Of a DNA stretch of 64,000 nt, positions 11,984-43,165 are shown in pieces. The stretch is from Candidatus Poribacteria bacterium (lineage in GTDB: Bacteria; Poribacteria; WGA-4E; WGA-3G). Made by a program: the position numbers and the translations under genes. The notes under the pieces were generated by a model. That model had not been told where the DNA came from, made no database searches, and saw only the letters and a list, made by a program, of their open reading frames with translations. The first letter of the stretch is position 1; each line of letters starts with the position of its first letter. The DNA is taken from positions 3,375 to 67,374 of the forward strand of contig JAAXHO010000059.1 of the NCBI GenBank assembly GCA_012270795.1, in the 5' to 3' direction.

Positions 11984-14857
11984 CTACTTGCCGCCCAATT
12001 TGCTGAGCCGTTTTTCTGCTTCAAGTTTCCACTGTTCAGGGGGTTTTAATTCTAAGAAACGTTTCCACTGTTCCCTTGCTAACTTGTTTCGTTCGGTATA
12101 TTCGTACATCAAGGCAAGATTGTAGTTTGCGGTCATATTTCTGGGTTCCAGTTCGAGTGCGCGTTCAAACTGGTCTGCAGCTGCGCCAAGTTTATCCATG
12201 CTGTAAAGCACGTTAGCATATACGATAATCGTTGGTACATGGTTTTCATTTAATTCAAGTGCCTTATCTAACATATCCTTTGCTTTATTTAATTCTAACT
12301 GATTATTGTAATACAGGTCACCAAGACGTTGATATGCTACAGTGGCTTTTTTGTTTATAGCGATCTCTTTTTCATAGAGTCTGATTGCTTCTTTCCAGTT
12401 CTGGCTACGTTCTGCCAGTTTACCGAGTTGTGTATGAACGCCTTTATAGTTTGGATCCATCTGTATGACTTTTTTGAATGTGTCCTCTGCGAGTCTGTAT
12501 TGTTCAATCCAGAGTTGGATAGAACCGATATGGAAGTATGCATCAACGTTTTTTGGGTCTATGTCGACGACCTGCTTGAAGTCTTCCATAATTTGACTGC
12601 TACGATAGAGTGTATCACCAATTCGTTTATAGCGGTTTGTAATGAGGCCGCGATGATAATATGCGTCCACGTGGTCGGGTTTTAGGGCGATAGTGGCAGT
12701 ATATTCTTTTACAGCCAATTCCGCGTGATGGTGATAGTCTTCAAGTGTTGCAGCATGCCCATCCAACAAGAGTGCGTAGCGATAGTGCCAGTCAACATGT
12801 TCGGGATCATGTTCGTTTGCTAAACCGTAATGATGCAATGCTTGTTGAAGGTTTTCTGCTTTGTTGTCTTCAGGCCCTTTTTTGAATCGTTTCTCAAAGG
12901 TGACAGCAAGTGTATGGTGGACATTTGGATGGGCAGGATCAAGTATTAATGCTGGTTGATAGACACGTATCATGTTATCTTCATCTTTCCGCTGTTCATA
13001 GATACCGCCAAGTCGGAAAAAGGGTTCTGCGTTTTCAGGATCAAGTTCAATAGTTTTCTCAAAATATACAATGGCATTGTCAATATCGTCCTTCTTTTGA
13101 TATAAAATTCCGGTCTGATATTGTGCATCAACATTGTCAGGTTGTAACCGAATGGTCTCTAAGAAAGCGGAGAGAGCTTCGTCGTCCTTTTCAAGTGCTA
13201 CATAAGAAAGGGCGGAGAGATAGTGTGCTTGTGCATCGGTTGCGTCAATTGCTATTATCCTTTTCAGTGTATCAATTGCATTTTGATGGGAAGCATCACC
13301 ACGATAGATATGAACCATTTTGTAAAGCACATCTGGTCTCTTTGCATCTAACTGCAATGTTTTTTCATAATAGACAAGGGCGTTGGTATTGTCTTCATTT
13401 GCTTCGTAACTCTGTCCTAACAGATATGTCGCATCAATATCTTTAGGATATAGAATTATATGCATGTTTAACGATTCAACGGCATCAGTGTAGTTCTCAT
13501 TTTCATAAGCAGATTTGCCTTGCGTCCAATATTTTGTCGCAAGTGTAGGATTGAATTCAATTGCCTTTCTGAGGTTTACGGCTGCCTCTTCTAATTTGCC
13601 TTGCTTGAAATAGAGTTCCCCCAGATACATATATGAGTCATTGAAGTGTCCAAAAGTTGGTGTTTTCTCAAGATAACTTGGATCTGCTTCAATAATCTCA
13701 ATAGTTTTTTTGTAGAGAGTGATGGCTTGTTCGACATTCTTATCATTTGCTTCAATACTTGCGAGATAAAAATAGGAGCGTGGGTCTTCGGGGAGAATAA
13801 GCATCGTTTTCTCTAAAATCTTACGTGCGTCTGCTGCATCCATTTCACTTACAAAAAAGGGTTTTAATGGTTCAAATAGGGCATCTTTTAGTGTTGGGTC
13901 ATCGTCTATTGCTTGTTGGTAATGTGTTTTTGCGGTCTCAACATCGCCTTGTGAATATAGGACTTCTGCTATAGCAAGGTGTGCTGGACCATACGCTGGA
14001 TCAATCTCAAGTGCGCGACGATACAACTGAACTGCCCCATCTGCGTTGTCACCTTCAGCGAAGATCACACCCAAATCATAGACATCTTTCGCAGTGTAGG
14101 GTTGATATTCTGCAGATTTTTGATATTCCAACAGTGCCTCATCATAAAACTTTTCCTTTGCAAGCACTTGACCTAATTTGATATATGCAGGTGCAAATTT
14201 GCGGTTGTTTTGAATAGCGCGTTCAAATGTCTCTCGCGCTTGATTCAGATTACCTTGGCCAAGGTAAACTAACCCTCTACCATAAACTGGGTATTCCCAT
14301 TTCGGGTTTAGCGTTTGTGCAACTTCAAAGGATTGGAGGGCTTCGGCATGTTTGCCCTGTTTGAGGTAGATTTCGCCTATGTAGTAGTGTGTAGGATAGA
14401 ACTCTGGATTTATGGTGAGACAGGTTTGGAATTTGATGAGTGCTTGTTCGTAATTTTCCATTTTTTTGTGGGCTGCACCGAGACTGTAATGTGCCCAAAA
14501 CATTGAGGGGTCAAGTTGAAGAGCGGTTTCATAGTTCATGATCGCCATCGCATCTGTGGTTGTATTTTGCTTTGTGTCAGACAATGCGTAGGCATAACCT
14601 AATCCGTAGAAGAACGCTGCATCATTTGCTTTGTTTGCTTTTTCGGTTTCATAGAGTTGTATGAGTTCTGTAAGAAGTTCCTGCTTTCGCCATTCAACAA
14701 CCAGTTCACGATGTTTTTCTGGTGCGTCTTTTTTTGCATTCAGAACCTTCGTGAAGTCTTTTTGCATTTTTTGTAATAAGTCATCTTGTGAGTGTGTATT
14801 TACTGCAATCGTAAAAAATGTGAATAAAAATATGAGCGAGAATACGATGCTTTTCAT
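11984..14857 (-). CDS. tetratricopeptide-repeat protein with signal peptide (957 aa)
   Basis: N-terminal signal peptide followed by more than 20 TPR-like repeats. Confidence 0.85.
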   Translation of the reverse strand: MKSIVFSLIFLFTFFTIAVNTHSQDDLLQKMQKDFTKVLNAKKDAPEKHRELVVEWRKQELLTELIQLYETEKANKANDAAFFYGLGYAYALSDTKQNTTTDAMAIMNYETALQLDPSMFWAHYSLGAAHKKMENYEQALIKFQTCLTINPEFYPTHYYIGEIYLKQGKHAEALQSFEVAQTLNPKWEYPVYGRGLVYLGQGNLNQARETFERAIQNNRKFAPAYIKLGQVLAKEKFYDEALLEYQKSAEYQPYTAKDVYDLGVIFAEGDNADGAVQLYRRALEIDPAYGPAHLAIAEVLYSQGDVETAKTHYQQAIDDDPTLKDALFEPLKPFFVSEMDAADARKILEKTMLILPEDPRSYFYLASIEANDKNVEQAITLYKKTIEIIEADPSYLEKTPTFGHFNDSYMYLGELYFKQGKLEEAAVNLRKAIEFNPTLATKYWTQGKSAYENENYTDAVESLNMHIILYPKDIDATYLLGQSYEANEDNTNALVYYEKTLQLDAKRPDVLYKMVHIYRGDASHQNAIDTLKRIIAIDATDAQAHYLSALSYVALEKDDEALSAFLETIRLQPDNVDAQYQTGILYQKKDDIDNAIVYFEKTIELDPENAEPFFRLGGIYEQRKDEDNMIRVYQPALILDPAHPNVHHTLAVTFEKRFKKGPEDNKAENLQQALHHYGLANEHDPEHVDWHYRYALLLDGHAATLEDYHHHAELAVKEYTATIALKPDHVDAYYHRGLITNRYKRIGDTLYRSSQIMEDFKQVVDIDPKNVDAYFHIGSIQLWIEQYRLAEDTFKKVIQMDPNYKGVHTQLGKLAERSQNWKEAIRLYEKEIAINKKATVAYQRLGDLYYNNQLELNKAKDMLDKALELNENHVPTIIVYANVLYSMDKLGAAADQFERALELEPRNMTANYNLALMYEYTERNKLAREQWKRFLELKPPEQWKLEAEKRLSKLGGK

Positions 14858-15919: not shown

Positions 15920-16855
15920 TTACACTTCCGATCCGTTCAATGCTTGTAAGAATGCCTCAACACCGGGTGTCTTGACTGCTGTGCGGTGAAGCTCTGTCAA
16001 ACGCTCAAGGTCTTGAATAGAATCAAGAGCAGGCTCTAGGCGTTGCACATCGCTTTGCGGAAAGCGTTCGGTTAGCACAGAATATATATTCTTGATTGCC
16101 ATTTCACGTGCAGCTTGTTGCTTAAGGTGTTCAATAAATGGAAATTCTTGCATCATGTCCTCCGATATGAGTCTTTGTAAAAAAGTTAGGTCATGCACTA
16201 AACTACTCAACGTTGTCATCGCAAACAACAGTGTGCCACGCGTCTGTGAATCAACAGGCGCGGCAACTGTCTTCTCAACACATTTTTCCAACCATGTTTC
16301 CGCGTCCATACCTTCTGGCGGTCTCATCAAAGGTGTGAAAGGTAACAATCCAACCGATGCTGCCTCCAAAAACGATTCATCTTCCAAATTCGCCAACCGA
16401 ATTACGTGATACTTATGCTGCAAACCAAAATCATCTTTTCCATAACTATAACCGCCTGGGTCGGTTTTCCCCGCATTTGGACTGAGATATATCACCACTG
16501 AATACACAGGAAGTTCATGACGTAACAGGAGTTCACTTGTGTATGAGAGCATCCGCAACGGCATCGGTTTATCTCTGCTATCCTCGGTTTGCACCTCTAT
16601 GTGAAGTAGGACTTCCTCATTGTGCCAAAGCACCTTAAATGTCATGTCATTGCGTTGCACCTTTATGTGAAGTAGGACTTCCTCATTGTGCCAAAGCACC
16701 TTAAATGTCATGTCATTGCGTTGCACCTTAACCCGTTGTTGTTCGATGTCAAGTGTTTCTAATACTTGGATATCGGGTGTGCCAAAGGATAGCATGGCGA
16801 ACTCATCGGCGTACTGGTGCATCAGATGCTTCACGATCTCATCATATTGTGCCAT
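15920..16855 (-). CDS. Rpn-family recombination-promoting nuclease / putative transposase (PDDEXK_7 + DUF4351-like C-terminus) carrying an in-frame 22 aa tandem duplication
   Basis: Motifs DMTFKVLW, HIEVQ and PLRMLSY are typical of the YhgA/Rpn family. The C-terminal helical region is DUF4351-like. A 66 bp tandem repeat is visible in the DNA. Confidence 0.65.
   Translation of the reverse strand: MAQYDEIVKHLMHQYADEFAMLSFGTPDIQVLETLDIEQQRVKVQRNDMTFKVLWHNEEVLLHIKVQRNDMTFKVLWHNEEVLLHIEVQTEDSRDKPMPLRMLSYTSELLLRHELPVYSVVIYLSPNAGKTDPGGYSYGKDDFGLQHKYHVIRLANLEDESFLEAASVGLLPFTPLMRPPEGMDAETWLEKCVEKTVAAPVDSQTRGTLLFAMTTLSSLVHDLTFLQRLISEDMMQEFPFIEHLKQQAAREMAIKNIYSVLTERFPQSDVQRLEPALDSIQDLERLTELHRTAVKTPGVEAFLQALNGSEV
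16591..16722. repeat. 66 bp x 2 direct tandem duplication (one mismatch) inside the Rpn-family gene
   Basis: Units at 16591-16656 and 16657-16722 encode the duplicated peptide KVQRNDMTFKVLWHNEEVLLHI. Confidence 0.9.
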
Positions 16856-16968
16856 GTTCAGTCGTATGCCTTTCCTAAAAGTCTTTTATTGATTATACTT
16901 GACGGGGTGGTGGTTTGTCAAGGGAAGTTTTTTTGGTGGGTGTTGGAGAGGAAAAGGCAGATGGTAGG

Positions 16969-19437
16969 TTATTCTTCTATTAGTTGCATGATTTCATCAG
17001 CACCGAAATTTAAAATAAATTCAGCATAATGGCTCGAAAACACATCTTTTAGGTAGGTCTTCAATTCAACATCTAATTTCGATCCGTTTTCGCTTTCCTG
17101 CACAACTTGATATTTATGTGCTTTTGTAATTGAGTACAAAAACAGTGTGTGGGCATACACAGAAGCAATATATTTCCGTTTACTGAATTCATTTTGTTCC
17201 TCGCTTGGATTTCTATTTTTTCTATGAAAATTTAGCCAAACTGTACTGTCCATGTTGATGTAAACGCGCTCTAATTTCTCACCGTTTACCATAGGATACA
17301 TTACAGTTGAGAAGTTCATCTCCTCTCCGATTGCTTCTTCAACTTGTTTCCAAGTTAATCCACCGTTTCTCTCAGGTCTTTCTTTTTCGTAAACGAGTGT
17401 TAGGCCGGGTAACCCTAAAGTTGGAATTTCTCTTTCTTCGGGTTTTGGTGCAGGCTCGGTAGGGGCTTTAGGTTCGCTAATTTTTACCCAAAATAGTTCT
17501 TTCAATTCTTCAGTAGCACCAGTCAAACTGACTTTAATTCTCACTTCGTCCCCGACATTAACAGTCTCTTTTGGGTTAAGATGAATCTTGATTGTCCCTT
17601 CTTGTGGACTGCTCTTGCTCGCATTGAATACCTCGTCAATTCTGTCAACTTGTCCAGGGGCATTTCCACCCTCTGTTTCATTTACTTTATAATCAAGAAT
17701 AGCAATCTTCAGTTCTCCAGGTTCTTCTATACGATCAAGGTAATTATTCTCCACATCCGTGTCAAATAGAATTGCTTTTTCTCCATCCTTGGGTATTGTT
17801 ACTGCCTCTTGTTCTGATTTTCCATTGGTCCTGCGTTTAAAGATTGCGGGAAATCGTTGTGGATTAAAAGGTTCAGGTTCCTTTTTCCTGCGTTTTTTCT
17901 TGGTTGAGCCATTGGCATTTTTATTCCAATTGCCTTTAGACTTCAAATCCAAATTTAATGTTTGGTCCAACAATTTCAGCAGGTCTTCGTTCCGAACGAT
18001 ATTTTTTGCAAAAGTTTTTATCAGTTCTTTTATATCTTCACTCTCAACAGTTATTGAATCTTTGCGTTGTCTGTGGATTTGTGCTAAACGTCCATTTCTG
18101 TCACCAAGTTTTTCTGCTAAATATTTTCGTAATGTCCTTGTTTCCTCACCATCTTTTAATCGGTCTCGAGATGCCATAAATAACTCTTTTCGGAAATCGT
18201 AGTTCATGTTTGTACAATCAACATGAATTAGAAGATGTTCCTTAAGTAGATTCAATTTGAGAGATCGGGTTATGAATTCCGATGTGTAATGACCATGTGT
18301 TTGCCCATTGACCGAAAATAGCACAGACATATTATTTTTGAAAAACTCTTTCCGAATTGTAGTTTTGGTCTCTTTGACGGATTTCTCATCAAGCTTTGTC
18401 TTAAAAACATAACATGTCACTTTCATTTTACCAAACAGTGCATCATCAAAATCTTCAGAAAAGCGTTTGTCAACGTATTTATAATCTTCTTGTTCTAATC
18501 TGCGTTTTAATCCATATAATCCTGTTCGTAGGGGACTCTTAGGATAACGTTTTTCATTTTCAATCGTATATACTGGTAATACAGGTTCAAATAGGTACTC
18601 ATTAATGCTCAGGTTTAAATCCCTTGAAATATCGGAGATTCCAGGTATATCGTAAGAGTATAGTTTTATGATTGACCCTGTAGTAAATTTCCTCTTGAAG
18701 AGACCTAAATCCAATTTAGCAATATCAAAAGCTGGAATTTTTTCGCCAATTTTCAAATATTCGTACCATGTATTCTTTTTTGTACTTTCCTCTGCTTCGC
18801 TTAGTGGATGCTCCCTGATAAGTGTAAAACCGAATTGTCCTGAATTGTCGAAACGTTTTGATGCGATTAATTGGTAACGTTTCTTGCCACAAAACACAAT
18901 AGCACCACTACCACCCATATTGTATTTTCCTTGCACAAAGTGAATTTCATTTTTATTTCCTCGCAATAACGACAAGAAGGTGTCTTCGAACTTTTCGGGA
19001 TGTTGTCCTTCACCATCATCATAAATAATAAGTGAGGTGTATTTTTTTGGACCATCGGCAAGAATTTGGATACTCTCTGCTTGTTCGTTTCTTGCTCCTG
19101 CCAAATCCCAATGTTTATGATTTGGAAAGAATTTCGTTCTGGCTTCTTCCATAGATTTAGGTGCTTGTGAGGATTTTGGATCAATGCCAACTTCCAGACA
19201 TTTTTTCATTAAAACAGCATCAATTGAGTTGGTGATTTTTTCAATCAGAGCGGCTATTGGAGCAGACTGTTGGTTTTCAATGACACCAAAATTATTGTCG
19301 TTGTCGCCAAGTGGATGCCAATTTTCAGGTTTGAAAATGTCCGGATAAGTATTTATGATTTTATCAAGTTCTTGCTCGGTTTGGGCAAAATATAGCTCGT
19401 TAAAAAGTTTTTTCATGTCCATTTGTAAGAAATCCAT
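16969..19437 (-). CDS. GHKL (Hsp90/MutL/MORC-like) ATPase-domain protein, 822 aa; candidate effector partner of the adjacent Ssp-like module
   Basis: GHKL N-box EKITNSIDA, G1 box DDGEG and G2 box GKYNMGGSGAI lie in the first 180 aa. A lysine/arginine-rich stretch (KKKRRKK) sits mid-protein. The gene begins 34 bp downstream of the PAPS-reductase gene on the same strand. Confidence 0.7.
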   Translation of the reverse strand: MDFLQMDMKKLFNELYFAQTEQELDKIINTYPDIFKPENWHPLGDNDNNFGVIENQQSAPIAALIEKITNSIDAVLMKKCLEVGIDPKSSQAPKSMEEARTKFFPNHKHWDLAGARNEQAESIQILADGPKKYTSLIIYDDGEGQHPEKFEDTFLSLLRGNKNEIHFVQGKYNMGGSGAIVFCGKKRYQLIASKRFDNSGQFGFTLIREHPLSEAEESTKKNTWYEYLKIGEKIPAFDIAKLDLGLFKRKFTTGSIIKLYSYDIPGISDISRDLNLSINEYLFEPVLPVYTIENEKRYPKSPLRTGLYGLKRRLEQEDYKYVDKRFSEDFDDALFGKMKVTCYVFKTKLDEKSVKETKTTIRKEFFKNNMSVLFSVNGQTHGHYTSEFITRSLKLNLLKEHLLIHVDCTNMNYDFRKELFMASRDRLKDGEETRTLRKYLAEKLGDRNGRLAQIHRQRKDSITVESEDIKELIKTFAKNIVRNEDLLKLLDQTLNLDLKSKGNWNKNANGSTKKKRRKKEPEPFNPQRFPAIFKRRTNGKSEQEAVTIPKDGEKAILFDTDVENNYLDRIEEPGELKIAILDYKVNETEGGNAPGQVDRIDEVFNASKSSPQEGTIKIHLNPKETVNVGDEVRIKVSLTGATEELKELFWVKISEPKAPTEPAPKPEEREIPTLGLPGLTLVYEKERPERNGGLTWKQVEEAIGEEMNFSTVMYPMVNGEKLERVYINMDSTVWLNFHRKNRNPSEEQNEFSKRKYIASVYAHTLFLYSITKAHKYQVVQESENGSKLDVELKTYLKDVFSSHYAEFILNFGADEIMQLIEE

Positions 19438-19471: not shown

Positions 19472-20290
19472 TTACTTATGACAAATCAGACAAGGTTCCT
19501 CGTCATCCTCGTCATCGTGAACATCCGTAAGAATTTCTATCAGTCGACGATTCGGTTTTTCCTTTTTCTTGGATGCCTTCGCCTTCTCAGTCCTTGCCTT
19601 GATTTGTGCTATCCGTTCAGGTTCTGCCAATTCCTCTAAACTTTCCCCTTGACTCCACGTGAACCGTTCACCTGTCTCTGTGTTGAATTTCTCATATCCT
19701 TTTGCCAGTTCAAAGAGATCTGGATGTTGCTCTAAGAGGCCCACCCATTCAGATTTGCGTTGGAAAAAGCAGAAGTAGCAACCAGAACGCGTACGCCATT
19801 TGTAATAGTCAGGCAAACCGAGTCCGCTCTCCTCAAGGATACGGTAAACGTCCTCTTTGGTGATGCCGTCATCTTTGAATGGGTATTTAGGGAAAATGTT
19901 TTGAAGGGAGCTTATTTTAGGTGGTTTGTACCCGACACGATCCTCGTCTGCACGGATAGCGATGTAGTGATACACTTGGTCATCACCGACATATTCCTCA
20001 AAAGGTTTGATTTTGAGTTTGATGGTGCACCAACGAACTTGAGAGGATGGCAATAATCCACCGTGTAGTGTTAACCAGTGATCAAAGTCACGATCCATGT
20101 TGAGTCGTGCAATCGGTTTGCCGAGGAATGCTTCAAGCCGGTCCAAAAACTCGTATGTCTCTGGCAGTTCTTTACCGGTATCTGTGAAAAAGTATTCCAT
20201 TTCTGGTACTTTGTCGCGCATGTAGACAGCAAGTGCTGAGCTGTCTTTTCCGCCTGAAAGACCAAGTAGGTGTCGTATTTTTTGTGGCAT
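19472..20290 (-). CDS. PAPS reductase-family protein (DndC/SspD/BrxP-like ATP pyrophosphatase)
   Basis: PP-loop motif LSGGKDSS and the C-terminal CYFC cysteine pair. An AGGAG RBS lies 7 nt upstream of ATG 20290. The longest ORF extends to 20335. Confidence 0.8.
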   Translation of the reverse strand: MPQKIRHLLGLSGGKDSSALAVYMRDKVPEMEYFFTDTGKELPETYEFLDRLEAFLGKPIARLNMDRDFDHWLTLHGGLLPSSQVRWCTIKLKIKPFEEYVGDDQVYHYIAIRADEDRVGYKPPKISSLQNIFPKYPFKDDGITKEDVYRILEESGLGLPDYYKWRTRSGCYFCFFQRKSEWVGLLEQHPDLFELAKGYEKFNTETGERFTWSQGESLEELAEPERIAQIKARTEKAKASKKKEKPNRRLIEILTDVHDDEDDEEPCLICHK

Positions 20291-20325
20291 GTTGTCTCCT
20301 TTCAAATAAATTTTTATATCACAGG

Positions 20326-20754
20326 ACTTACGCATTTTCTCTTAAAGTCCCACTGATAAGGGGATTTAGAGGGTTATAGTAAAATCTATAATTAATGGGA
20401 CACTTCTGTAGCGCAAACTTTAGTTTGCGTCTCATCGGCACAAACTAAAGTTTGTGCTACAATCTCTGTTGTCCGTTATGTTTCCAAAATAGGTTTATCA
20501 AAGTGTCCTAATAATTTCAAAGTTCACTATAAATTAACCTAATTGCCACCTATGTAGCACAAACTTCAGTTTGTGCATCTGTGGAACGCAAACTAAAGTT
20601 TACGCTACAAAATATTGGCTAATTATCAGCATTTTTCACGAAAGACGGTGTTTCCATGTCTAAAACTTATAGGTAGCAACTTGGGTTATAAATAACTGAA
20701 ATAACGCCTTTTTAACCCCCTACCCCTTTATCATGGGGGAATGCGTAAGTCATG
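20326..20754. mobile_element. MITE-like element, family E: terminal inverted repeats GGACTTACGCATT / AATGCGTAAGTC with four internal 22-25 bp palindromic units (GCAAACTTTAGTTTGC type)
   Basis: Terminal inverted repeats at 20326-20341 and 20739-20754. Subterminal CTGATAAGGGGATTTAG(A/G)GGGTTA motifs. A partial copy lies at 1728-1790. Units are at about 20398-20419, 20427-20451, 20566-20588 and 20594-20620. Confidence 0.7.
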
Positions 20755-20760
20755 AAAATT

Positions 20761-23700
20761 TCACATCCTATTTTCAGATTGCTCCATCAATTTTTTTGAA
20801 ATTCGCGCCAAAATAGCAAGACGAAATTCGGAGTTTTTGTCTACATCAAGCTCATCAAAAATCTTTGTAATTGCTCGTTCTATTTTATCGGCATGTTCCT
20901 CATCAGTTAAATTAACAACTCGTTCCTGTTCGTGCTCGTTTGGTGTTGTAATGCCTATCCGAATTGTCTCACCAGATGATTTGGTGTGTTGCAGTTTTTC
21001 AAAAGAAACTGCTTCAAAATGTTGAAATTTTCTTGCAAGTTGCGAAAGGTTGATCTCAAATTGTGCTTTATCTGTGTCTATCCACGATGCAGGCGGTTTT
21101 TTGGCAAGAAAAGTGCCGATTGATTCAATCCAACCTGTGAAATCATGCCCTTCACTATAAAGATGGATTAAAAATCCTTTAAGTTGTGTCTCAATTGCCA
21201 CCTCTAACAAGGGTTCTGCTCTTGCGGCTAATTCTGCGCGGAGTTCTTCCGCTGTGGACTCCAACGTGAACGCATCTGCAAGCATCCGTTCAAGTGAGTT
21301 TAGCAGTCCTTCGTAAGCACTGCCGAGTTCAGACAATGCGTCTTGCAGTGTGTTAAAAAAGTCTGAAAGCATTTTTGAGTCTGTTGTTTCTGGACCAAAA
21401 CTTGGGAATCCGAATGCTTCGGGCAACTGTTTAAAAAGGAGTTCGTCAGGTTCACTTGCATTTTGAACAACTTTACGTAGATTTTTTGCTGCGTCACTCA
21501 ACTCCTGTGTTGTTAAAGTATATTTCGGTAGTTGCGCGATAAAACGCATCAATGGGGTGACAATTGTCAACAGGTCCGGGTTTTCAGTTTCCACAGGTTG
21601 ATTGAGCATCTTCAGAAATCGTGCAAATAGATCGGCACGGATTCCCGCCATTCGAAATCGCTTCAGTTCAAATTGTTCTGGTGCTTTAAGCAGACGTTCG
21701 AAAACTGGCGTTGACAGGTCAGCAATAAAGGAACCGTTCTCATAGAGTGCGATTTCTGTTCTGTAATGGAGGATCGCAGCACACAACAGAATAGGGAGTG
21801 GACCGCCACGGACGCCGAGTGGTGGTTGCATGAGAAATTTATAGAGATTTTCAACAGGCTGTCGCGTATCTTCACACTTGCTAAGAAACGTTTCAATTGC
21901 ATTCCAGGTGTGTTCTATTCCGTTTTTATCCTCTGCTTTTGGTGGATGGAACCCCCAAACACCTGAGGCATGACGGTGTATCCCCGTATCTAATAAGAGG
22001 GATCGGTAGATACTCATTTCAGGTGGAAACTTTTTGATACCGAGATTCTCTTTGTCCCCATTCTCAAGCATGGCTTGAATTAATTTTCTGCGTGCGTTTG
22101 TCGCAGCACCAGATATTTTGCGACGATTGATAAGTTCATTTCGTATGAGAGGCGTTTTGTGGAAAACCTTATCACATATTTTTGACAAGTATGCGTTTCG
22201 GGCACGTTGCGAGTTAATATTTACCGTTTCACCGTTGCAATACCATGAACAAGCATCTCCATTGTTTCCACTAAAAATTGTTGTTAACTGGTGAGATATA
22301 TTTCGCTCTGCTGCAATCTGATGCATTGAGAGTTCACGTCTTGCGACCGCATCACCTTCAAGTTCAAGCGTGTTGTCCGCAATCCACTGTAAGTGGACGA
22401 GTTGCATAACTGCATCGTCCAGAAAACCGGTGGAATGCGGAATCGCAATTAATACCTTTTTGCGATTTTCAGTATCAATGTTACTTGCCTTTTTAACGAG
22501 CTGCTTAACCTCATATTCGTTTGCAGGCAAAGTATAGAGGATAAGTCCGTCTGCATCATCAAGTGGGGCTGTGAGGGCTACATCAAAGTTTTCTAAATCA
22601 GTGTAGCGAATAGTGAAGTAACGTAGGGTACCGGTTTGGTATAAATGTCGCTTTGCAACAAGCGGGGGGGGCACGTTACGTGATAGATCTATAACGAGTG
22701 ATACTTTTGTGCCAACGTGCGCTGCTGCCTCACGGAGTTTTGCCGCAATGTCAATGTCGCTGCCTTCCCACAGCGCGTAAGTTTTGTTATATGTACGGTA
22801 GATAACAATTGAACGGTTTTTCAGTGTCCCAAGTGCATCTTCAAATTCGGTGGCAAATCCTGCTGTGTTATCGTCAAGTGCGTAACGTAGCAATTGCTCT
22901 GAGGCTTTCAGGTTAGGAATTGGTTCGCTAACAATGCTGAGTAGCCCGATGGTTTTTATCAGTTTAACCGTCATTTCGGAAGGGTCTGGTAGTTGCGTTA
23001 TTGCGGTTTCAATCTCTATCCATTTTTTGCTGTTGCTTGAAATATAGAGTTTATTGCCCTGCGTGGTACCAAGGTAGTCGTATAGGTCAGCGAGCGAAAA
23101 CATCGGTAGACTGTCACCGTCATAATGTTGGTTTGCAAGGAAGTCTTGTAACCCGTTCGGTGCACTTGAGCTGAGAAAAGCGAAGAGGGAACGTTCATTT
23201 TGTCCGAATCGGCGGAAAAGCGGGCCGATGAGGAGTGCTACTGTCGGATGCAGCGGCAGACAATCTTTCAAGAGTTGGATAAATTCATGATTGTCAAGTT
23301 GACGCGGTTTAAGTCCTAATTCGGTAGCGGTGTTAAGGTTTTCCCTGCAAACAATCTCTGCAGGTTTTTCAAGTGCAGCACCGACTAAACGGAGTACCTG
23401 TTCGGTAGGTTCTGCAAATGCCACATCTTCAAATCTTCCTTGCACCTTTGCCCACTCTTCGCGTTGTGATTGCGCGGTACGCTGTGCATACACCTCAAAA
23501 GCTTGGTGGAGGATAGTCATGAGAAATAGGGGCGTTTGCTTGCTTCTGTCTGCTAATTCCGCAAGGTTCTGTAGGATAAACATATCCCCTTGTGTTGGGT
23601 GTTGCGTAGCGTATTCCAGAAACTTACCGAGTTCGTCAATCACGAGCAGCAGTCCCGCACCTCCCGAATCACAAATTTCGTGCGTTGCTAATTCAAACAC

Positions 23701-24246
23701 ACGCGCAACTTCAGAGGCAGGTGGTAAGGTGTCATTTTCTGCTTTTTCCAACAAATTATTGAGTTCTTGAAGGAGAGAAATAGAGAGTTGTGTACTGTTG
23801 GCAGCGGTGAGTCCGCGTTCTAAACCGCGCAAAAGTGCAAGCGAAAGAGGGGCGCGTTCGCCAGAGATAAGCACGGGACAGAATCCAGAGGGTGTGTGCT
23901 TTTCGTTACCGTTTGTGCTGATGAATCGCTCATATAACGAAGCATCTCCACGTTTGAGTATTTCTAAGGCGTGTTGTGTTGTCGGGGCATTAGGTTTGCC
24001 AAGCAATTTTGCAGCGAAAAGTGCGAACGCTGATTTTCCTGACCCATAGGGGCCGGTGAGTGTCCATGCTTTAGATGTTGCTTCATTTTCAAACGTTGAA
24101 ATAACACGCGATAACATTTCCCGCGCGGTGGCGGTTAAAATGTATCCATCAAGCACGTTTTCTGTGTAAAAGTCGCGTTCAAGATGTACTGAACGCCGAA
24201 AACGTCCTTGGACATGGAAAATATCTGAAAGCGGAATGTCATCCAT
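20761..24246 (-). CDS. large P-loop ATPase (1161 aa), SspC/BrxC(PglY)-like
   Basis: Walker A TLTGPYGSGKSAF at about residue 60 and Walker B LLLVIDELGKF at about residue 200, followed by a long alpha-helical C-terminal region. Its ATG overlaps the stop codon of the upstream DUF4007 gene (ATGGATGA). Confidence 0.7.
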   Translation of the reverse strand: MDDIPLSDIFHVQGRFRRSVHLERDFYTENVLDGYILTATAREMLSRVISTFENEATSKAWTLTGPYGSGKSAFALFAAKLLGKPNAPTTQHALEILKRGDASLYERFISTNGNEKHTPSGFCPVLISGERAPLSLALLRGLERGLTAANSTQLSISLLQELNNLLEKAENDTLPPASEVARVFELATHEICDSGGAGLLLVIDELGKFLEYATQHPTQGDMFILQNLAELADRSKQTPLFLMTILHQAFEVYAQRTAQSQREEWAKVQGRFEDVAFAEPTEQVLRLVGAALEKPAEIVCRENLNTATELGLKPRQLDNHEFIQLLKDCLPLHPTVALLIGPLFRRFGQNERSLFAFLSSSAPNGLQDFLANQHYDGDSLPMFSLADLYDYLGTTQGNKLYISSNSKKWIEIETAITQLPDPSEMTVKLIKTIGLLSIVSEPIPNLKASEQLLRYALDDNTAGFATEFEDALGTLKNRSIVIYRTYNKTYALWEGSDIDIAAKLREAAAHVGTKVSLVIDLSRNVPPPLVAKRHLYQTGTLRYFTIRYTDLENFDVALTAPLDDADGLILYTLPANEYEVKQLVKKASNIDTENRKKVLIAIPHSTGFLDDAVMQLVHLQWIADNTLELEGDAVARRELSMHQIAAERNISHQLTTIFSGNNGDACSWYCNGETVNINSQRARNAYLSKICDKVFHKTPLIRNELINRRKISGAATNARRKLIQAMLENGDKENLGIKKFPPEMSIYRSLLLDTGIHRHASGVWGFHPPKAEDKNGIEHTWNAIETFLSKCEDTRQPVENLYKFLMQPPLGVRGGPLPILLCAAILHYRTEIALYENGSFIADLSTPVFERLLKAPEQFELKRFRMAGIRADLFARFLKMLNQPVETENPDLLTIVTPLMRFIAQLPKYTLTTQELSDAAKNLRKVVQNASEPDELLFKQLPEAFGFPSFGPETTDSKMLSDFFNTLQDALSELGSAYEGLLNSLERMLADAFTLESTAEELRAELAARAEPLLEVAIETQLKGFLIHLYSEGHDFTGWIESIGTFLAKKPPASWIDTDKAQFEINLSQLARKFQHFEAVSFEKLQHTKSSGETIRIGITTPNEHEQERVVNLTDEEHADKIERAITKIFDELDVDKNSEFRLAILARISKKLMEQSENRM

Positions 24247-25246
24247 AATATCTCTCTAAAGGTAGCATCGGATTATAATCTCTATAGCGATAGACCTGCT
24301 TTAAGTCAGCGGTTTCGTCGTACTGCAACGCACCATCGGTGAGTTGTTCAAGCTTTTCAAGATATATCGTCATCGTGTCTTCGTCTAATTTAAAAATGCG
24401 TCCGGGACTTAATGGGGCGTACATCAGTTCTGTAAAAGGTAGTGCGTCTTTTTCGGAGAAACGCGCATCCCAAAAGGCGATGAGTGTTGCTGTCACAACC
24501 TCAATTGGCAACGTCTCTTTTTCGCCGCGCTGGAATTCATACATGCCGCTATCTGGCAATTCGGTGATGAGGTTAAGTTCAACGAGTGGACAGTCAAACG
24601 TATCTTCCACTACGTCAGCGTTATGGCGTGATTGGCAGTAGGTTCGGATAAAGCAATTGACATCTCGCTGCATCGTATTCTCAGAAAAAGTACGCATAGA
24701 TTTTTTCTGCTGTTTTGCCCATTCGTACAATTCTTCCGTGAATGCTGTACGAACAAATTGATTTTTCTTTAAGATATTAAATGCCCAATACCATGCTGTT
24801 GCCTGATTGATGTTCGTTGCGATCTGCCAATGGATTAACCACAAAGTGGCAGGATCATCCAAGTATGGGTCAAATCCGTTTTTGTCGTTAAAAATGGCGT
24901 TACCGAGTGTAGTTGGAACGAATCGCCCCTGTTGATAACCATCTACCTTGATGAGTCTTGCTACACGACACCAATGCCGAATAGAATCCACCATATTTTT
25001 TCCGACACCTAAAATTACAGACGCGTACTCTGAGGAAAAGATCGTTGAATCATCTGTTACAGCATCAACCCCCTTTTTTAGCCATGTATACCGAAACGGA
25101 AAGGTTTGGTGACCAGAAAAGGACGGATTGATTATATACGGAGTAGCTGTATGTTCTGCAAGTAGTAGGTTTTCCATACAAATTATTATACCATACGCGC
25201 AACAAAAATGGCAATACATCTTAACAAAAAGTGCAGATGAATTCAA
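24239..25246 (-). CDS. DUF4007-like protein (SspB-like)
   Basis: Near-N-terminal motif FSGHQTFPFRYTWLKKG is characteristic of DUF4007 (recalled from memory). The true start is probably the internal Met at about 25177 (MENLLLAEH...). There is an 8 bp overlap with the ATPase gene. Confidence 0.55.
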   Translation of the reverse strand: MNSSALFVKMYCHFCCAYGIIICMENLLLAEHTATPYIINPSFSGHQTFPFRYTWLKKGVDAVTDDSTIFSSEYASVILGVGKNMVDSIRHWCRVARLIKVDGYQQGRFVPTTLGNAIFNDKNGFDPYLDDPATLWLIHWQIATNINQATAWYWAFNILKKNQFVRTAFTEELYEWAKQQKKSMRTFSENTMQRDVNCFIRTYCQSRHNADVVEDTFDCPLVELNLITELPDSGMYEFQRGEKETLPIEVVTATLIAFWDARFSEKDALPFTELMYAPLSPGRIFKLDEDTMTIYLEKLEQLTDGALQYDETADLKQVYRYRDYNPMLPLERYYG

Positions 25247-29476: not shown

Positions 29477-32155
29477 CTATTTATTCTGTTTTGAAAGAAG
29501 TTTTGCGACTTCGTCCCTGCCAGTTTTTACTTTTTTCTCGTCTATTTTCAACTTTAACAGTCCCACAACAAACTCTGTTATTCCCCAGTCGATTTTGGTA
29601 ACGCTCAAGGGTGTCATACCATCATTTTTTTTGAGGCTAATATCTGCCCCTTTCTCAAGTAGTAGTTTTGCTGTTTCAGTACGTCCAAGGAATGCTGCAG
29701 CATGCAACGCTGTAGAACCGTCCCTATGTCGGTTATTGATTTTTGCCCCTTTTTCAAGTAGCAATTTCGCTGCTTCTGTCTGCCCATTTAGTGCTGCCCA
29801 ACCTAAAGGATCTATTCCAAATTGTGGGTCAAGTGCTTCAATATCTGAACCGTTTTCTAAAGCAGTCTTGATAGCAGGCAGATCACCATCCGCAGCTGCT
29901 TTCCACAAATTTTGGGATTGTGAAGGATTATTCTTCTCATAAGCAGCGATTAGTTTTGCAATTTCTGCTCTGCCCGTTTCCACTTCTTTTCTATCAACTT
30001 CAATTTGGATAACATTGAGAATAGCTTGTGTAATTCCCCAGTCAAGTGTTGTATTATCCATAGCAGATCCACCTGAGTGATTACGCACATGAACATCTAC
30101 ACCATGTTTCAAAAGCAATTTCGCCGCTTCCGTACGTCCTAAAAATGCTGCAGCATGTAAGGTTGTGTTACCATCCCTATTTACACCATTAACATCTGCC
30201 CCTTTCTTCAATAAGAATTCCATGATGTCTGTATGTCCCATCAACGAAGCAATAAATAGCAAGGGATCTCCCGACTGTGGATTCCGCGAATTCACATCCA
30301 ACCCATCAGCGATTGCCTTTTCTACTTTCTTTAAATCACCGGTAAAAGCGGCTTCCCAAACCTCGTTTGCAGCACCTTGTGGTTCTGTAGAATTTGTGTT
30401 TCTGAGTAGCTCAGCAACTTCCTTTCTACCTGCTTCTACCTCCTCCTGTTTCAAATCTATATCAAACATGCTTGTCATGAACCTAAGCATACCCCACGGC
30501 AGATATAAACCGCTTGCGGGTGTAGCACCACCATGATTTTTGGCATTAACATCTGCCCCGTTATCAAGAAGAAGTTCAGTAAGTTCAACACGACCTAAAG
30601 TAACAGCAACATGTAAGGGAGTTCCCCCATCCTCTTGTCGGACATTGACATCCGCACCGAGTTTGATAAGCAATTCTGCAGCTTCTGTGTGTCCCATCAT
30701 CGTTGCCCAGGTTAACGGAGATAAATGTGTATCGTCTGAAAGTGCATCAATCTCTGCGCCTTCGGCAATGTAACGCTTGATACCATCAAGGTCACCGAGA
30801 CGGGCAGCCCCCCACAAATTGTCTTCCGGTAATTCAATAAATTGTTTCATAAACTTTCCATCAAAACCATCAGGTCCCATCACGATTGGCGGGTGTGGTC
30901 GTCTTCTCCATTCAGGCATACCATCACTTATCTCTTCTAAAATCTTACTCTTACGAGTTCTGATAAATTCCCGCACTTCATCTAACTTCTCTTCAAAAGC
31001 AATCGTTTCGCCTCTACCCCATCCCTCATTTTCTTTAATGGTTCGTTGTGAGGGTATCATATGCGGTTGAATCATCGTAGAAATTCTATCTAATTCAGCA
31101 AAGAGCTTAACTTCGTTCCAATGGTTTTCAAGTATATCTATCATCGTCTTTGCATACCGTTCTTTACCAGCATCAAGTTGATAAAGTCTATAAGCAATTA
31201 AGCCTTGTGTCTTTACCGAAATTGGCGCGTTAGTTTTTCTCCCCATATTCTTCATATCAAAGTTTGAGAACAACGCATCTGCACCCCAAGGCAAGAAGTG
31301 AAACTTGTCTGTTTCAGGATTTAGATAGACAAAGAAATTATTGTTGTTCCCAGAATAACCATCCCAGAAACCGAGTAATCCTTCTATTACCCAAAATCGG
31401 TAGAAACTATCTAAATCAACAAACTGACCGATGGTCTTTTCACTTACTTCATCAGCCGCTAACACATTAATTAACCCTTTTATTTTTTCTCTCCCGTGTT
31501 TATCTTTACCTCTCTTGTGTTCAAAACTGTTCTCCCAATCCTTATAGAAATCTACCACTGAACCTTCATATAAGGTGCCGTCGTCATCACCAAAAGCACG
31601 CTTGAGTATAGGTTTTCGCATAGTCTCCACATGCGAATATATACCTAAGTTCTTACCATTCACTGTAACCTTCGCATAACCACAACGTGGTGCAGGAGAA
31701 CCGATTGCGTTGAACAACGCATATCCCAAAAACTGACTGACATGCGTTACATCTTGTTGATTGTTATTCAGTGTTAGGTTGGTCAATCCTTCTATTCCGC
31801 CTTTTTTGTCTACATGGTTCAACTTGATCTTGAGGGATGGACGCGATATACTCTGTGAACCGATGAAACCTTTCTTGCGGATTCCGACTTTCGGGAACTC
31901 TACCCCGTCAATACTTACACTTGCATCAACGTAGGTATACGGATGCTCTGGTGGTGCAAACTGACGGGACTCGTTCAGTACATCCATAAAACCCCGTGAC
32001 TGAATCCGTATCTTGTTCCAATCCCGTTGTGAAACAGTTATCTGTATATCTAAAACCCGGTCGCTTGGGAATATATCGTCCAAAGTCAATTCCTTTGCAT
32101 CAATGTTTCCGACACAAAGTATCGTTGCAAAACCTACTATCCATTTGATCATCAT
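29477..32155 (-). CDS. secreted CotH-kinase-like protein with C-terminal ankyrin repeats (892 aa)
   Basis: Signal peptide, then a CotH domain (first roughly 400 aa), then at least 9 ankyrin repeats (TPLHxAxxxGxxExxxLLLxxGADVN). Confidence 0.8.
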   Translation of the reverse strand: MMIKWIVGFATILCVGNIDAKELTLDDIFPSDRVLDIQITVSQRDWNKIRIQSRGFMDVLNESRQFAPPEHPYTYVDASVSIDGVEFPKVGIRKKGFIGSQSISRPSLKIKLNHVDKKGGIEGLTNLTLNNNQQDVTHVSQFLGYALFNAIGSPAPRCGYAKVTVNGKNLGIYSHVETMRKPILKRAFGDDDGTLYEGSVVDFYKDWENSFEHKRGKDKHGREKIKGLINVLAADEVSEKTIGQFVDLDSFYRFWVIEGLLGFWDGYSGNNNNFFVYLNPETDKFHFLPWGADALFSNFDMKNMGRKTNAPISVKTQGLIAYRLYQLDAGKERYAKTMIDILENHWNEVKLFAELDRISTMIQPHMIPSQRTIKENEGWGRGETIAFEEKLDEVREFIRTRKSKILEEISDGMPEWRRRPHPPIVMGPDGFDGKFMKQFIELPEDNLWGAARLGDLDGIKRYIAEGAEIDALSDDTHLSPLTWATMMGHTEAAELLIKLGADVNVRQEDGGTPLHVAVTLGRVELTELLLDNGADVNAKNHGGATPASGLYLPWGMLRFMTSMFDIDLKQEEVEAGRKEVAELLRNTNSTEPQGAANEVWEAAFTGDLKKVEKAIADGLDVNSRNPQSGDPLLFIASLMGHTDIMEFLLKKGADVNGVNRDGNTTLHAAAFLGRTEAAKLLLKHGVDVHVRNHSGGSAMDNTTLDWGITQAILNVIQIEVDRKEVETGRAEIAKLIAAYEKNNPSQSQNLWKAAADGDLPAIKTALENGSDIEALDPQFGIDPLGWAALNGQTEAAKLLLEKGAKINNRHRDGSTALHAAAFLGRTETAKLLLEKGADISLKKNDGMTPLSVTKIDWGITEFVVGLLKLKIDEKKVKTGRDEVAKLLSKQNK

Positions 32156-42438: not shown

Positions 42439-42612
42439 TTAAATTATGGTTGTGTAAAGTTTGGGTTTCTTGTCTGAACCAGGATTACCAGATTTTCAAA
42501 TCAACGGTATGAATGCCTTAGCTTTACACACCCGATTTGGTGTTTAATTTGCAATTGGGCAAAAGTTATAGTATAATATAAGCACGGTTTAGTTTATGAA
42601 AGGTTTTATTAT

Positions 42613-42688
<76 letters not shown>

Positions 42689-42695
42689 TTCGGAT

Positions 42696-42769
<74 letters not shown>

Positions 42770-42779
42770 TATTGCTGTT

Positions 42780-42852
42780 GGTGGATGTAGCTCAGGGGTA
42801 GAGTGCCTGACTGTGGATCAGGAGGTCGTGGGTTCAAATCCCATCATCCACC
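42780..42852 (+). tRNA. tRNA-His (anticodon GTG) with G-1
   Basis: Manual fold: extra 5' G pairing with discriminator C, anticodon loop CTGTGGA. Confidence 0.8.
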
Positions 42853-42862
42853 TTTTTAGGAT

Positions 42863-42935
42863 GCGTCCGTAGTTCAATGGATAGAGCAATAGCCTTCGGA
42901 GCTATAAGTTGGGGGTTCGAATCCCTCCGGACGCT
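42863..42935 (+). tRNA. tRNA-Arg (anticodon TCG)
   Basis: Manual fold: acceptor GCGTCCG/CGGACGC, anticodon arm ATAGC-CTTCGGA-GCTAT. Confidence 0.7.
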
Positions 42936-42936
42936 T

Positions 42937-43009
42937 GCGCTGTTAGCTCAATTGGCAGAGCATCTGACTCTTAATCAGAGGGTTGAAGGTTCGATTCCTT
43001 CACGGCGCA
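42937..43009 (+). tRNA. tRNA-Lys (anticodon CTT)
   Basis: Manual fold: acceptor GCGCTGT/ACGGCGC, anticodon loop CTCTTAA. Confidence 0.8.
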
Positions 43010-43079
43010 TCGGTTCTTATGTTACAGAACGGATGCGGAATTTGCCTTCTTTTTATACGGCATCTGTGTTGAGGAACAG

Positions 43080-43165
43080 GGGCGGGTGCTGGAATTTGGT
43101 AGACAGGATAGACTTAGGATCTATTGGGGTTATGCCTCGTGAGGGTTCAAGTCCCTCCTCGCCCA
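43080..43165 (+). tRNA. tRNA-Leu (anticodon TAG), type II with long variable arm
   Basis: Manual fold: acceptor GGGCGGG/CTCGCCC with one G-U pair, anticodon loop CTTAGGA, 16 nt variable arm, T-loop TTCAAGT. Confidence 0.7.

Follow-up and report, generated by a model that had tools for sequence, protein, structure and literature searches.

A MORC/MutL-type GHKL ATPase as a probable core partner of Ssp DNA phosphorothioation in a Candidatus Poribacteria genome

In E. coli, IscS-SspBCD combined with either SspE or SspFGH is a working defence based on DNA phosphorothioation (PT), and no GHKL ATPase is needed for it; 83.9% of sspBCD loci have neither SspE nor SspFGH, and the authors suggest that there are undiscovered partners (PMC8092258). 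For restriction-modification (R-M) systems, Iyer et al. (2008) proposed that proteins combining GHKL and S5 domains, the paraMORCs, act in a MutL-like way, coupling an epigenetic mark to nucleases via ATP-driven rearrangements (PMC2292703). The subject here is a gene of a Candidatus Poribacteria bacterium (assembly GCA_012270795.1, contig JAAXHO010000059.1, positions 3,375 to 67,374; this whole 64,000-nucleotide stretch is called the window) that lies at 16969-19437 on the reverse strand, stop codon included, behind three genes of an Ssp single-strand DNA phosphorothioation system. Its product, a GHKL ATPase, is probably an unnamed, conserved core partner of Ssp defence, as judged from sequence comparison, and thus an apparently new component of a known PT system.

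The ATPase gene is the fourth and last member of a same-strand string, sspB-sspC-sspD-ghkl, all on the reverse strand. The first, sspB (24239-25246), matches DUF4007 in Pfam (E 9.9e-87) and SspB in PADLOC (E 2.9e-99); the second, sspC (20761-24246), overlaps it by 8 bp and encodes a BrxC/PglY-like ATPase (PADLOC SspC, E 0, 1126 bits); the third, sspD (19472-20335), encodes a sulfur-transfer enzyme of the PAPS-reductase fold, matching PADLOC SspD over its full length (E 1.8e-119) and Pfam PAPS_reduct (E 2.7e-10). In characterised Ssp systems SspB is the DNA-binding and nicking subunit. An earlier reading of this DNA, made from the sequence alone, had placed the ATPase beside a PAPS reductase: the fold is right, but the neighbour is not a lone enzyme, being SspD preceded by SspC and SspB. 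The window as a whole encodes no cysteine desulfurase (SspA) and no cassette gene of the kinds listed further on, and so carries the island in its minimal form, SspBCD and the ATPase alone. The locus in this way points to a simple unit of four genes.

The association recurs in other genomes. A word-indexed search returned 2,623 homologues of the ATPase, every one of them named “hypothetical” or “ATP-binding protein”, and an exhaustive search of representatives clustered at 50% identity gave 1,823 clusters at E<1e-3 and 565 at E<1e-30. A genome scan with one genome per species confirmed 144 loci, of which 80 were taken for analysis (51-83% identity to the window ATPase); these span about ten phyla, among them Poribacteria, Bacteroidota, Chloroflexota, Alpha-, Gamma- and other Pseudomonadota, Myxococcota, Gemmatimonadota and Ignavibacteria, and the closest, at 82-83% identity, are Candidatus Poribacteria metagenome-assembled genomes with a flank in common with the window, which makes a poribacterium living with sponges the probable source of this DNA. 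Within 10 kb of the ATPase gene, SspC is found in 67 of the 80 loci, SspD in 64 and SspB in 61, the remaining loci being on truncated contigs. Where at least 8 kb of flank is available on both sides, SspC or SspD is present in 56 of 56 loci, and all three of SspBCD, by strict clustering, in 46 of the 56. A link to a DNA-sulfur module, read originally from a single adjacency, is therefore a property of the close clade as a whole. The earlier reading had also considered that the gene might occur elsewhere without modification genes: this is so for distant relatives (about 25-37% identity), but for none (0/56) of the close homologues.

The islands have a recurrent layout, with SspB-C-D forming one boundary, the ATPase the other, and a variable block of genes lying between them or just beyond. 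SspA, a class-V aminotransferase, is the direct same-strand upstream neighbour of the ATPase in 11 loci (at a distance of 9-24 bp in 10 of these), and it shares an operon with SspD in four loci, the window included. Median pairwise identity within the island is highest for the ATPase (56%), followed by SspD (52%), SspB (33%) and SspC (27%). Since the Ssp genes and the ATPase flank a swappable block, the layout may help annotators to spot new defence cassettes.

The family is missing from defence catalogues: scans of the ATPase against PADLOC (2.0) and NCBIfam gave no match. Full-text literature searches, which did not cover subscription-only papers, found no paper tying a GHKL or MORC ATPase to Ssp or Dnd, and comparative studies of PT and BREX systems (PMC10853773, PMC12839542, PMC12914056) mention no GHKL ATPase partner; in searchable full text, then, the suggestion that a GHKL ATPase next to a DNA-sulfur module would be new holds up. 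About 84% of sspBCD loci are without a known restriction partner (PMC8092258). Are these orphan modification systems, or do they have partners still to be discovered? The ATPase family, large, highly conserved and linked to Ssp in its close clade, is a concrete candidate for part of this gap.

The N-terminal half makes clear that the gene product belongs to the GHKL ATPases, and among these to the MORC/MutL (GHL) type. The ORF (open reading frame) is intact, with 822 codons and no interruption, and carries the complete set of Bergerat motifs: motif I (E66-K-I-T-N70-S-I-D73-A), motif II (Y139-D140-D-G142-E-G144), the Gly-rich ATP lid or motif III (G170-K-Y-N-M-G175-G176-S-G178-A) and motif IV (G203-F-T205), the last of these in addition to the three (ExxxNSxDA, DDGEG and GxxGxGxxA) that the sequence-only reading had named and correctly placed. 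In an alignment of 150 sequences with 51-85% identity to the window protein, the residues of motifs I, II, lid and IV (E66, N70, D73, D140, G142, G144, G170, G175, G176, G178 and T205) are invariant in 150 of 150. Conservation peaks in residues 40-440, which include two invariant blocks of the transducer domain (N377-G-Q379 and F420-M-x-S-R-D-R426), the near-invariant H381 and H383, and invariant basic residues (K339, K367, R424, R426) that are candidates for the transducer contact with the gamma-phosphate. The C-terminal domains are less conserved, yet have invariant positions of their own (W696, N728, D730, Y761, H763, Y768). Family resources recognise little of this: in Pfam the protein has a single, sub-threshold match, to HATPase_c_3 (E 2e-4; 21.7 bits against a cut-off of 25), and sequence (phmmer) and profile (hmmsearch) searches of the PDB gave no meaningful match, and none to MutL.

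AlphaFold2, given the 150-sequence alignment, yields a model (mean pLDDT, the predicted local distance difference test score, 73) that divides the protein into five parts, given here with their reverse-strand coordinates: a Bergerat (GHKL) ATP-binding domain, residues 1-265 (18643-19437), with the alpha/beta sandwich of that superfamily; an S5-like alpha/beta transducer domain, residues 270-460 (18058-18630), the combination that defines the GHL subgroup; a disordered Lys/Arg-rich linker, residues 463-521 (17875-18051), with pLDDT of 24-40; an Ig-like beta-sandwich domain, residues 525-655 (17473-17865); and a family-specific alpha/beta end domain, residues 677-822 (16972-17409). The best structural matches are to MORC3 (score 17.9, alignment length 283), SMCHD1 (15.9, 312), MutL of E. 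coli (15.6, 274) and of B. subtilis (14.7, 268), TRAP1 (14.4, 318) and MORC2 (14.3, 311), with topoisomerase ATPase modules ranking after these. The alignment lengths span ATPase and transducer domains together, so that the N-terminal half is a GHL-type module and not that of a histidine kinase; with the conserved motifs, this bears out the earlier description of the protein as a GHKL ATPase.

The C-terminal half is less readily placed. A separate model of the last 301 residues, in which the window fragment was aligned with full-length database proteins, matched only Ig-like folds, and the terminal alpha/beta domain had no solved-structure match among the matches listed. A Pfam scan of 77 homologous C-terminal fragments, at E up to 1, gave nothing consistent, and no informative domain fusions were seen among longer members of the family. 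The possibility raised earlier that this half might adopt a nuclease or PT-binding (sulfur-binding-domain-like) fold thus found no match in structure comparison; nor is it a histidine kinase sensor, consisting instead of the linker, the Ig-like sandwich and an orphan alpha/beta domain. The basic patch KKKRRKK, thought a possible DNA-binding element, does exist (residues 513-519), but lies inside the predicted disordered stretch (pLDDT <50), the least conserved part of the protein, which is Lys-rich throughout the family without conservation of the sequence itself: a piece of flexible linker, then, and not a defined DNA-binding motif.

How does the ATPase compare with proteins already described? 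The general definition of a paraMORC (a GHKL domain with S5/transducer, intact ATP motifs and an R-M context) applies to the family, which resembles the paraMORCs (PMC2292703) also in having a family-specific C-terminal extension, a patchy and laterally mobile distribution in R-M or defence contexts, and distant members beside methyltransferases and endonucleases. It differs in that its partner in the window is a backbone-sulfur (PT) module, which that paper does not mention, and in the absence of a fused nuclease or TIR domain or of an obligatory SF-II helicase; an HxH pair is present (H381, H383), but in the transducer region. From MutL it is separated by the lack of a Pfam MutL_C or DNA_mis_repair match, an identity of only about 9-12% in structural alignment, the absence of a MutS-like partner and a C-terminus made of the Ig-like sandwich and the orphan alpha/beta domain. 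Identification as MutL itself was rejected on the Pfam result and the purely Ig-like matches of the C-terminal model, and as a MORC proper because the MORC-specific S5 family of Pfam is unmatched and there is no CW zinc finger or coiled coil; identity to MORC3, MORC2 and SMCHD1 is 11-14%, with no CW, coiled-coil, SMC-hinge or other eukaryotic reader domain.

The likeness to SspE and SspFGH is one of place and not of sequence. The ATPase takes the gene position after sspD and, as SspFGH does, may co-occur with an SspE-type protein; like SspE (7.4%) and SspFGH (7.3%), it belongs to a minority of sspBCD loci. SspE, however, consists of DUF262 (GmrSD_N) plus DUF1524/HNH, SspF has a Walker A motif and SspH is FtsK/SpoIIIE-like in its C-terminal part (PMC8092258), all unrelated in sequence to the Bergerat-fold ATPase. 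It was accordingly rejected as an SspE (no PADLOC SspE or Pfam GmrSD match; SspE is a separate gene in 7 related loci) and as a member of SspFGH (no GxxxxGK[ST] motif on reading the sequence, no FtsK match in Pfam).

The variable blocks of the islands hold a range of cassettes: short GmrSD_N-HNH proteins (24 loci, with a Ser/Thr kinase alongside in 11); a 165-amino-acid (aa) protein with a DndB-like protein (17-20 loci); larger DndB-like proteins; full SspE (7 loci); Mrr-type nucleases (7 loci); an AAA_22-containing triplet (10-12 loci); HEF_HK-type paraMORC triplets (7 loci); MzaB-like MORCs; and PLD-helicase proteins, SMC-like and STAND NTPases and AAA_21 ATPases. Three Poribacteria loci share the downstream flank of the window and differ only in the cassette, which is GmrSD_N-HNH in L009, SspE in L024 and the 165-aa and DndB-like pair in L019; the window has none. 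The minimal SspBCD-GHKL arrangement without a nuclease is found in the window and in one other locus, L042. In 12 loci a protein of 159-178 aa with no family match and a DndB-like protein of about 420 aa follow the ATPase at 19-25 bp (for example at 12474-14248 in L027 and 12492-14242 in L001), and in six Poribacteria and gammaproteobacterial loci a DndB-like protein of 628-774 aa with a partner of about 200 aa lies between SspD and the ATPase. Such DndB-like proteins with small partners may be analogues of SspE.

Other GHKL proteins occur in the same islands. HEF_HK proteins of 746-791 aa and a MORC protein of 568 aa matching PADLOC MzaB (E 1.3e-19) are, like the 822-aa family, GHKL proteins inside Ssp islands; they are, however, separate families and part of the variable cassettes. 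The 822-aa family, by contrast, is a constant member of the islands and has no PADLOC or Pfam match to them. A further protein, of 637 aa, matches HATPase_c weakly; its gene shares 4 bp with the start of the ATPase gene in L003 (8091-10004), L007, L008 and L020, which suggests that the two families are translationally coupled in these four loci. The 637-aa protein has no detectable sequence similarity to the ATPase and was rejected as a paralogue. In an Ssp island on a plasmid of Trichormus variabilis (L097, 4232-20724) a “PT-associated putative methyltransferase”, DndB, a DEAD helicase, a 608-aa MORC-like ATPase, a PLD nuclease and SspA lie together, a classic MORC-helicase-nuclease cassette embedded in a PT system. 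With the MzaB-like, HEF_HK and 637-aa proteins, this suggests that the connection between PT and MORC proteins may be broader than the 822-aa family.

Beyond the close clade, the relatives at about 25-37% identity have no PT genes near them, and a DNA methyltransferase gene is adjacent in 6 of the 14 loci examined, three of the six being related loci at one chromosomal site; the remaining loci are solitary or in mobile-element contexts. Full-length relatives at 31-37% lie beside type I R-M systems, type II methyltransferase-endonuclease pairs or single methyltransferases. A Methanobacterium homologue, for instance, is 31% identical over residues 6-736, retains the FMxSRD and YINMD blocks, and ends 15 bp before hsdM-hsdS-hsdR; in another locus a methyltransferase ends 1 bp upstream of the ATPase, and on a Halogeometricum plasmid a methyltransferase is divergently oriented beside it. 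At the single chromosomal site (L091-L094) the ATPase is constant, three loci having different methyltransferase-HNH or methyltransferase-BsaWI pairs and the fourth the ATPase alone; two families of neighbouring proteins there (x941-973 and x454-487, of 941-973 and 454-487 aa) have no Pfam or PADLOC match, look like chromosomal flank, and were set aside. These methyltransferase contexts fit the paraMORC framework of Iyer et al. (2008; PMC2292703). Two distant members are preceded at about 10 bp by homologous genes without a family match (350-368 aa, 35% identity; L087 7938-8990 and L090 7882-8988), one of them beside an integrase and a Prim-Pol gene; the pairing may represent an independent system of two genes carried by mobile elements.

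What might the ATPase do? By analogy with its fold family, there is perhaps an even chance that it is a dimeric, ATP-gated DNA clamp or matchmaker on the restriction or sensing side of a distinct Ssp subtype. Its domain order is the MutL plan, and from the analogy we infer that it dimerises and clamps DNA. It would work in pairs, like MutL and MORC, with an N-terminal gate that shuts around DNA on ATP binding and C-terminal domains that hold the dimer together or dock partner proteins. The ATPase may then couple the PT status of DNA, as written by SspBCD, to a downstream action, which could come from the interchangeable nuclease cassettes that accompany it in most genomes (DUF262/DndB-type, HNH, Mrr, PLD-helicase) or simply from entrapment of the DNA; where there is no local SspA, sulfur would be supplied by a housekeeping cysteine desulfurase elsewhere in the genome. 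MORC- or MutL-like reading of epigenetic marks would in this way be extended from base methylation to a backbone-sulfur mark.

Several points weigh against a clamp on the restriction side. The dimer and the clamp are taken from the fold family; no PD-(D/E)xK, HNH, PLD or sulfur-binding-domain signal was found in the ATPase by Pfam, PDB or structure matches; and in the window, with no nuclease cassette, a pure matchmaker would have no local recruit. The 80 loci were chosen by similarity to the query, so that the figure of 56/56 covers only the close clade (at least about 50% identity). The coupling to SspA, the constant presence and the enzyme-like conservation fit a place on the modification side equally well. 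Finally, divergence of the ATPase is only moderately correlated with that of the three Ssp proteins (Spearman 0.43-0.53; among SspB, SspC and SspD themselves, 0.78-0.87), which suggests that the ATPase has been exchanged somewhat independently, without co-evolving with the specificity subunits, and that it may not contact them.

Another possibility, which we consider rather unlikely, is that the ATPase is an accessory of modification, helping or regulating PT synthesis by loading or recycling SspBCD, managing the SspB nick or setting PT density. The operons with SspA in 11 loci (10 of them with the 9-24 bp spacing) and with SspD in the window and three more would suit such a role, as would the constancy of the ATPase while nuclease cassettes vary, its enzyme-like conservation, above that of SspD, and its presence in a window with no restriction-like gene. 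Four observations argue instead against the PT-synthesis side. Defence by IscS-SspBCD with SspE or SspFGH works in E. coli although the ATPase is absent (PMC8092258). Of 71 plasmids bearing an SspD homologue, 3 carry a close homologue of the ATPase, the other 68 SspD loci being without one. On plasmids with the same gene order, XRE-SspA-SspB-SspC-SspD, what follows in Agrobacterium sp. T29 is an SspFGH-like trio, including a 1,750-aa FtsK/SpoIIIE protein, and in Ensifer adhaerens a paraMORC cassette with an ATPase of the 822-aa family, which thus stands in the SspFGH position. And the distant full-length relatives, at 31-37% identity, are not linked to PT enzymes, many of them going with methyltransferase-based R-M systems.

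Overlapping with the clamp on the restriction side, and in our estimate quite unlikely, is the idea that the ATPase is a self-contained effector without a nuclease, which by itself entraps or compacts DNA lacking PT and so blocks replication or transcription of the invader, the cassettes being independent systems. It draws on the two minimal SspBCD-GHKL islands, in the window and L042; on MORC3 and SMCHD1 as closest structural matches; on the nature of the cassettes, which (PLD-helicase, STAND NTPases and AAA_21 ATPases, for example) are typical stand-alone defence modules; and on the distant clade, where R-M cassettes turn over beside an ATPase that stays fixed at a single chromosomal site. 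Eukaryotic MORCs entrap or compact DNA in silencing. Nevertheless, no PT-reading domain was identified in the ATPase, minimal loci are rare and the window resembles a reduced form of the L019 arrangement, and no bacterial precedent was found in the literature searched. Improbable, but far-reaching if true, is the further proposal that the ATPase defines a new Ssp type as its effector, a MORC-like, ATP-gated clamp without a nuclease that entraps or compacts unmarked invader DNA and spares PT-marked self: the broader family would then do the same for methylation-based systems, and would be a prokaryotic counterpart, possibly a forerunner, of eukaryotic MORC silencing, reading a modification of the backbone.

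It seems very improbable that the ATPase is merely an independent neighbour, an unrelated defence or housekeeping gene that shares the island with Ssp and is uncoupled from it. Defence genes do cluster in islands, distant relatives do occur alone or in other contexts, and co-variation with SspBCD is weak; but the 56/56 linkage persists across Poribacteria, Bacteroidota, Chloroflexota, Pseudomonadota, Myxococcota and others despite cassette turnover, and the gene lies in operons with SspD or SspA. A signalling protein of histidine kinase type, as annotations such as “ATP-binding protein” and “histidine kinase-like ATPase”, the weak HATPase_c_3 match and the presence of HEF_HK-type kinase-like proteins in some islands might suggest, is scarcely credible and was rejected, there being no HisKA/DHp domain upstream of the ATPase domain, no receiver or sensor domain in Pfam, and structural matches of the GHL type.

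Some details of the window remain to be described. The start of the ATPase gene is ambiguous between M1, M6 and M8, with no strong ribosome-binding site favouring any of them; family conservation begins at about residue 8, and an identical database protein (P0001), at 817 aa, is consistent with M6 as the start. The spacing of 34 bp from the sspD stop given by the sequence-only reading is correct for M1, but becomes a range of 34-55 bp once M6 and M8 are allowed. Its suggestion of co-transcription with sspD is plausible: the genes share a strand, this short gap separates them, and the junction has only weak promoter matches (9/12 to consensus). Upstream, a candidate promoter for the ssp operon (TTGCCA-18-TATAAT, 25185-25214, reverse strand; 11/12 matches, with a TG extension) sits within the over-long 5' end of the sspB ORF; since the domain does not begin until residue 43, the true start of sspB is probably downstream of the listed TTG. 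This candidate promoter is a pattern match, of a kind not enriched over shuffled sequence. Downstream, between the ATPase stop and the next gene, orf311, is a perfect sigma-70 consensus (TTGACA-18-TATAAT, 16892-16921, reverse strand) that likely marks the end of the ssp transcription unit. The -35 box of this downstream consensus lies in one arm of an inverted repeat, CTTGAC...GTCAAG, that spans the spacer.

Between sspC and sspD is a spacer of 425 bp (20336-20760) containing four copies of a palindromic unit of about 24 nt, TGTAGCRCAAACTWWAGTTTGYGC, in two pairs about 90 nt apart (20407-20430 and 20438-20461; 20553-20576 and 20586-20605), where chance would produce 0. No further copy occurs elsewhere in the window or in 84 related loci, and a check against Rfam was without result. 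The palindromes could be an insertion of MITE (miniature inverted-repeat transposable element) or REP (repetitive extragenic palindromic) type, or operator sites, and might affect expression of sspD and the ATPase. A related Poribacteria locus (L010, 6187-6367) has different inverted repeats, four copies of 30-38 nt, in its own sspC-sspD spacer, a position that seems to collect repeat elements.

The gene downstream, orf311 (15920-16855), encodes 311 aa with no Pfam, NCBIfam or PADLOC match and recurs beside PfkB in Poribacteria. Together with the PfkB kinase and a long TPR gene it forms a block shared with L009, L019 and L024, whatever the content of the island; with its own perfect promoter consensus, and travelling with this chromosomal flank, it was rejected as a component of the system. 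On the reverse strand the window encodes a 957-aa TPR protein (11984-14857) and an 892-aa ankyrin-repeat protein (29477-32155), both of kinds typical of sponge symbionts, and on the forward strand six tRNA genes (Pro, Arg, His, Arg, Lys, Leu) lie close together at 42612-43165.

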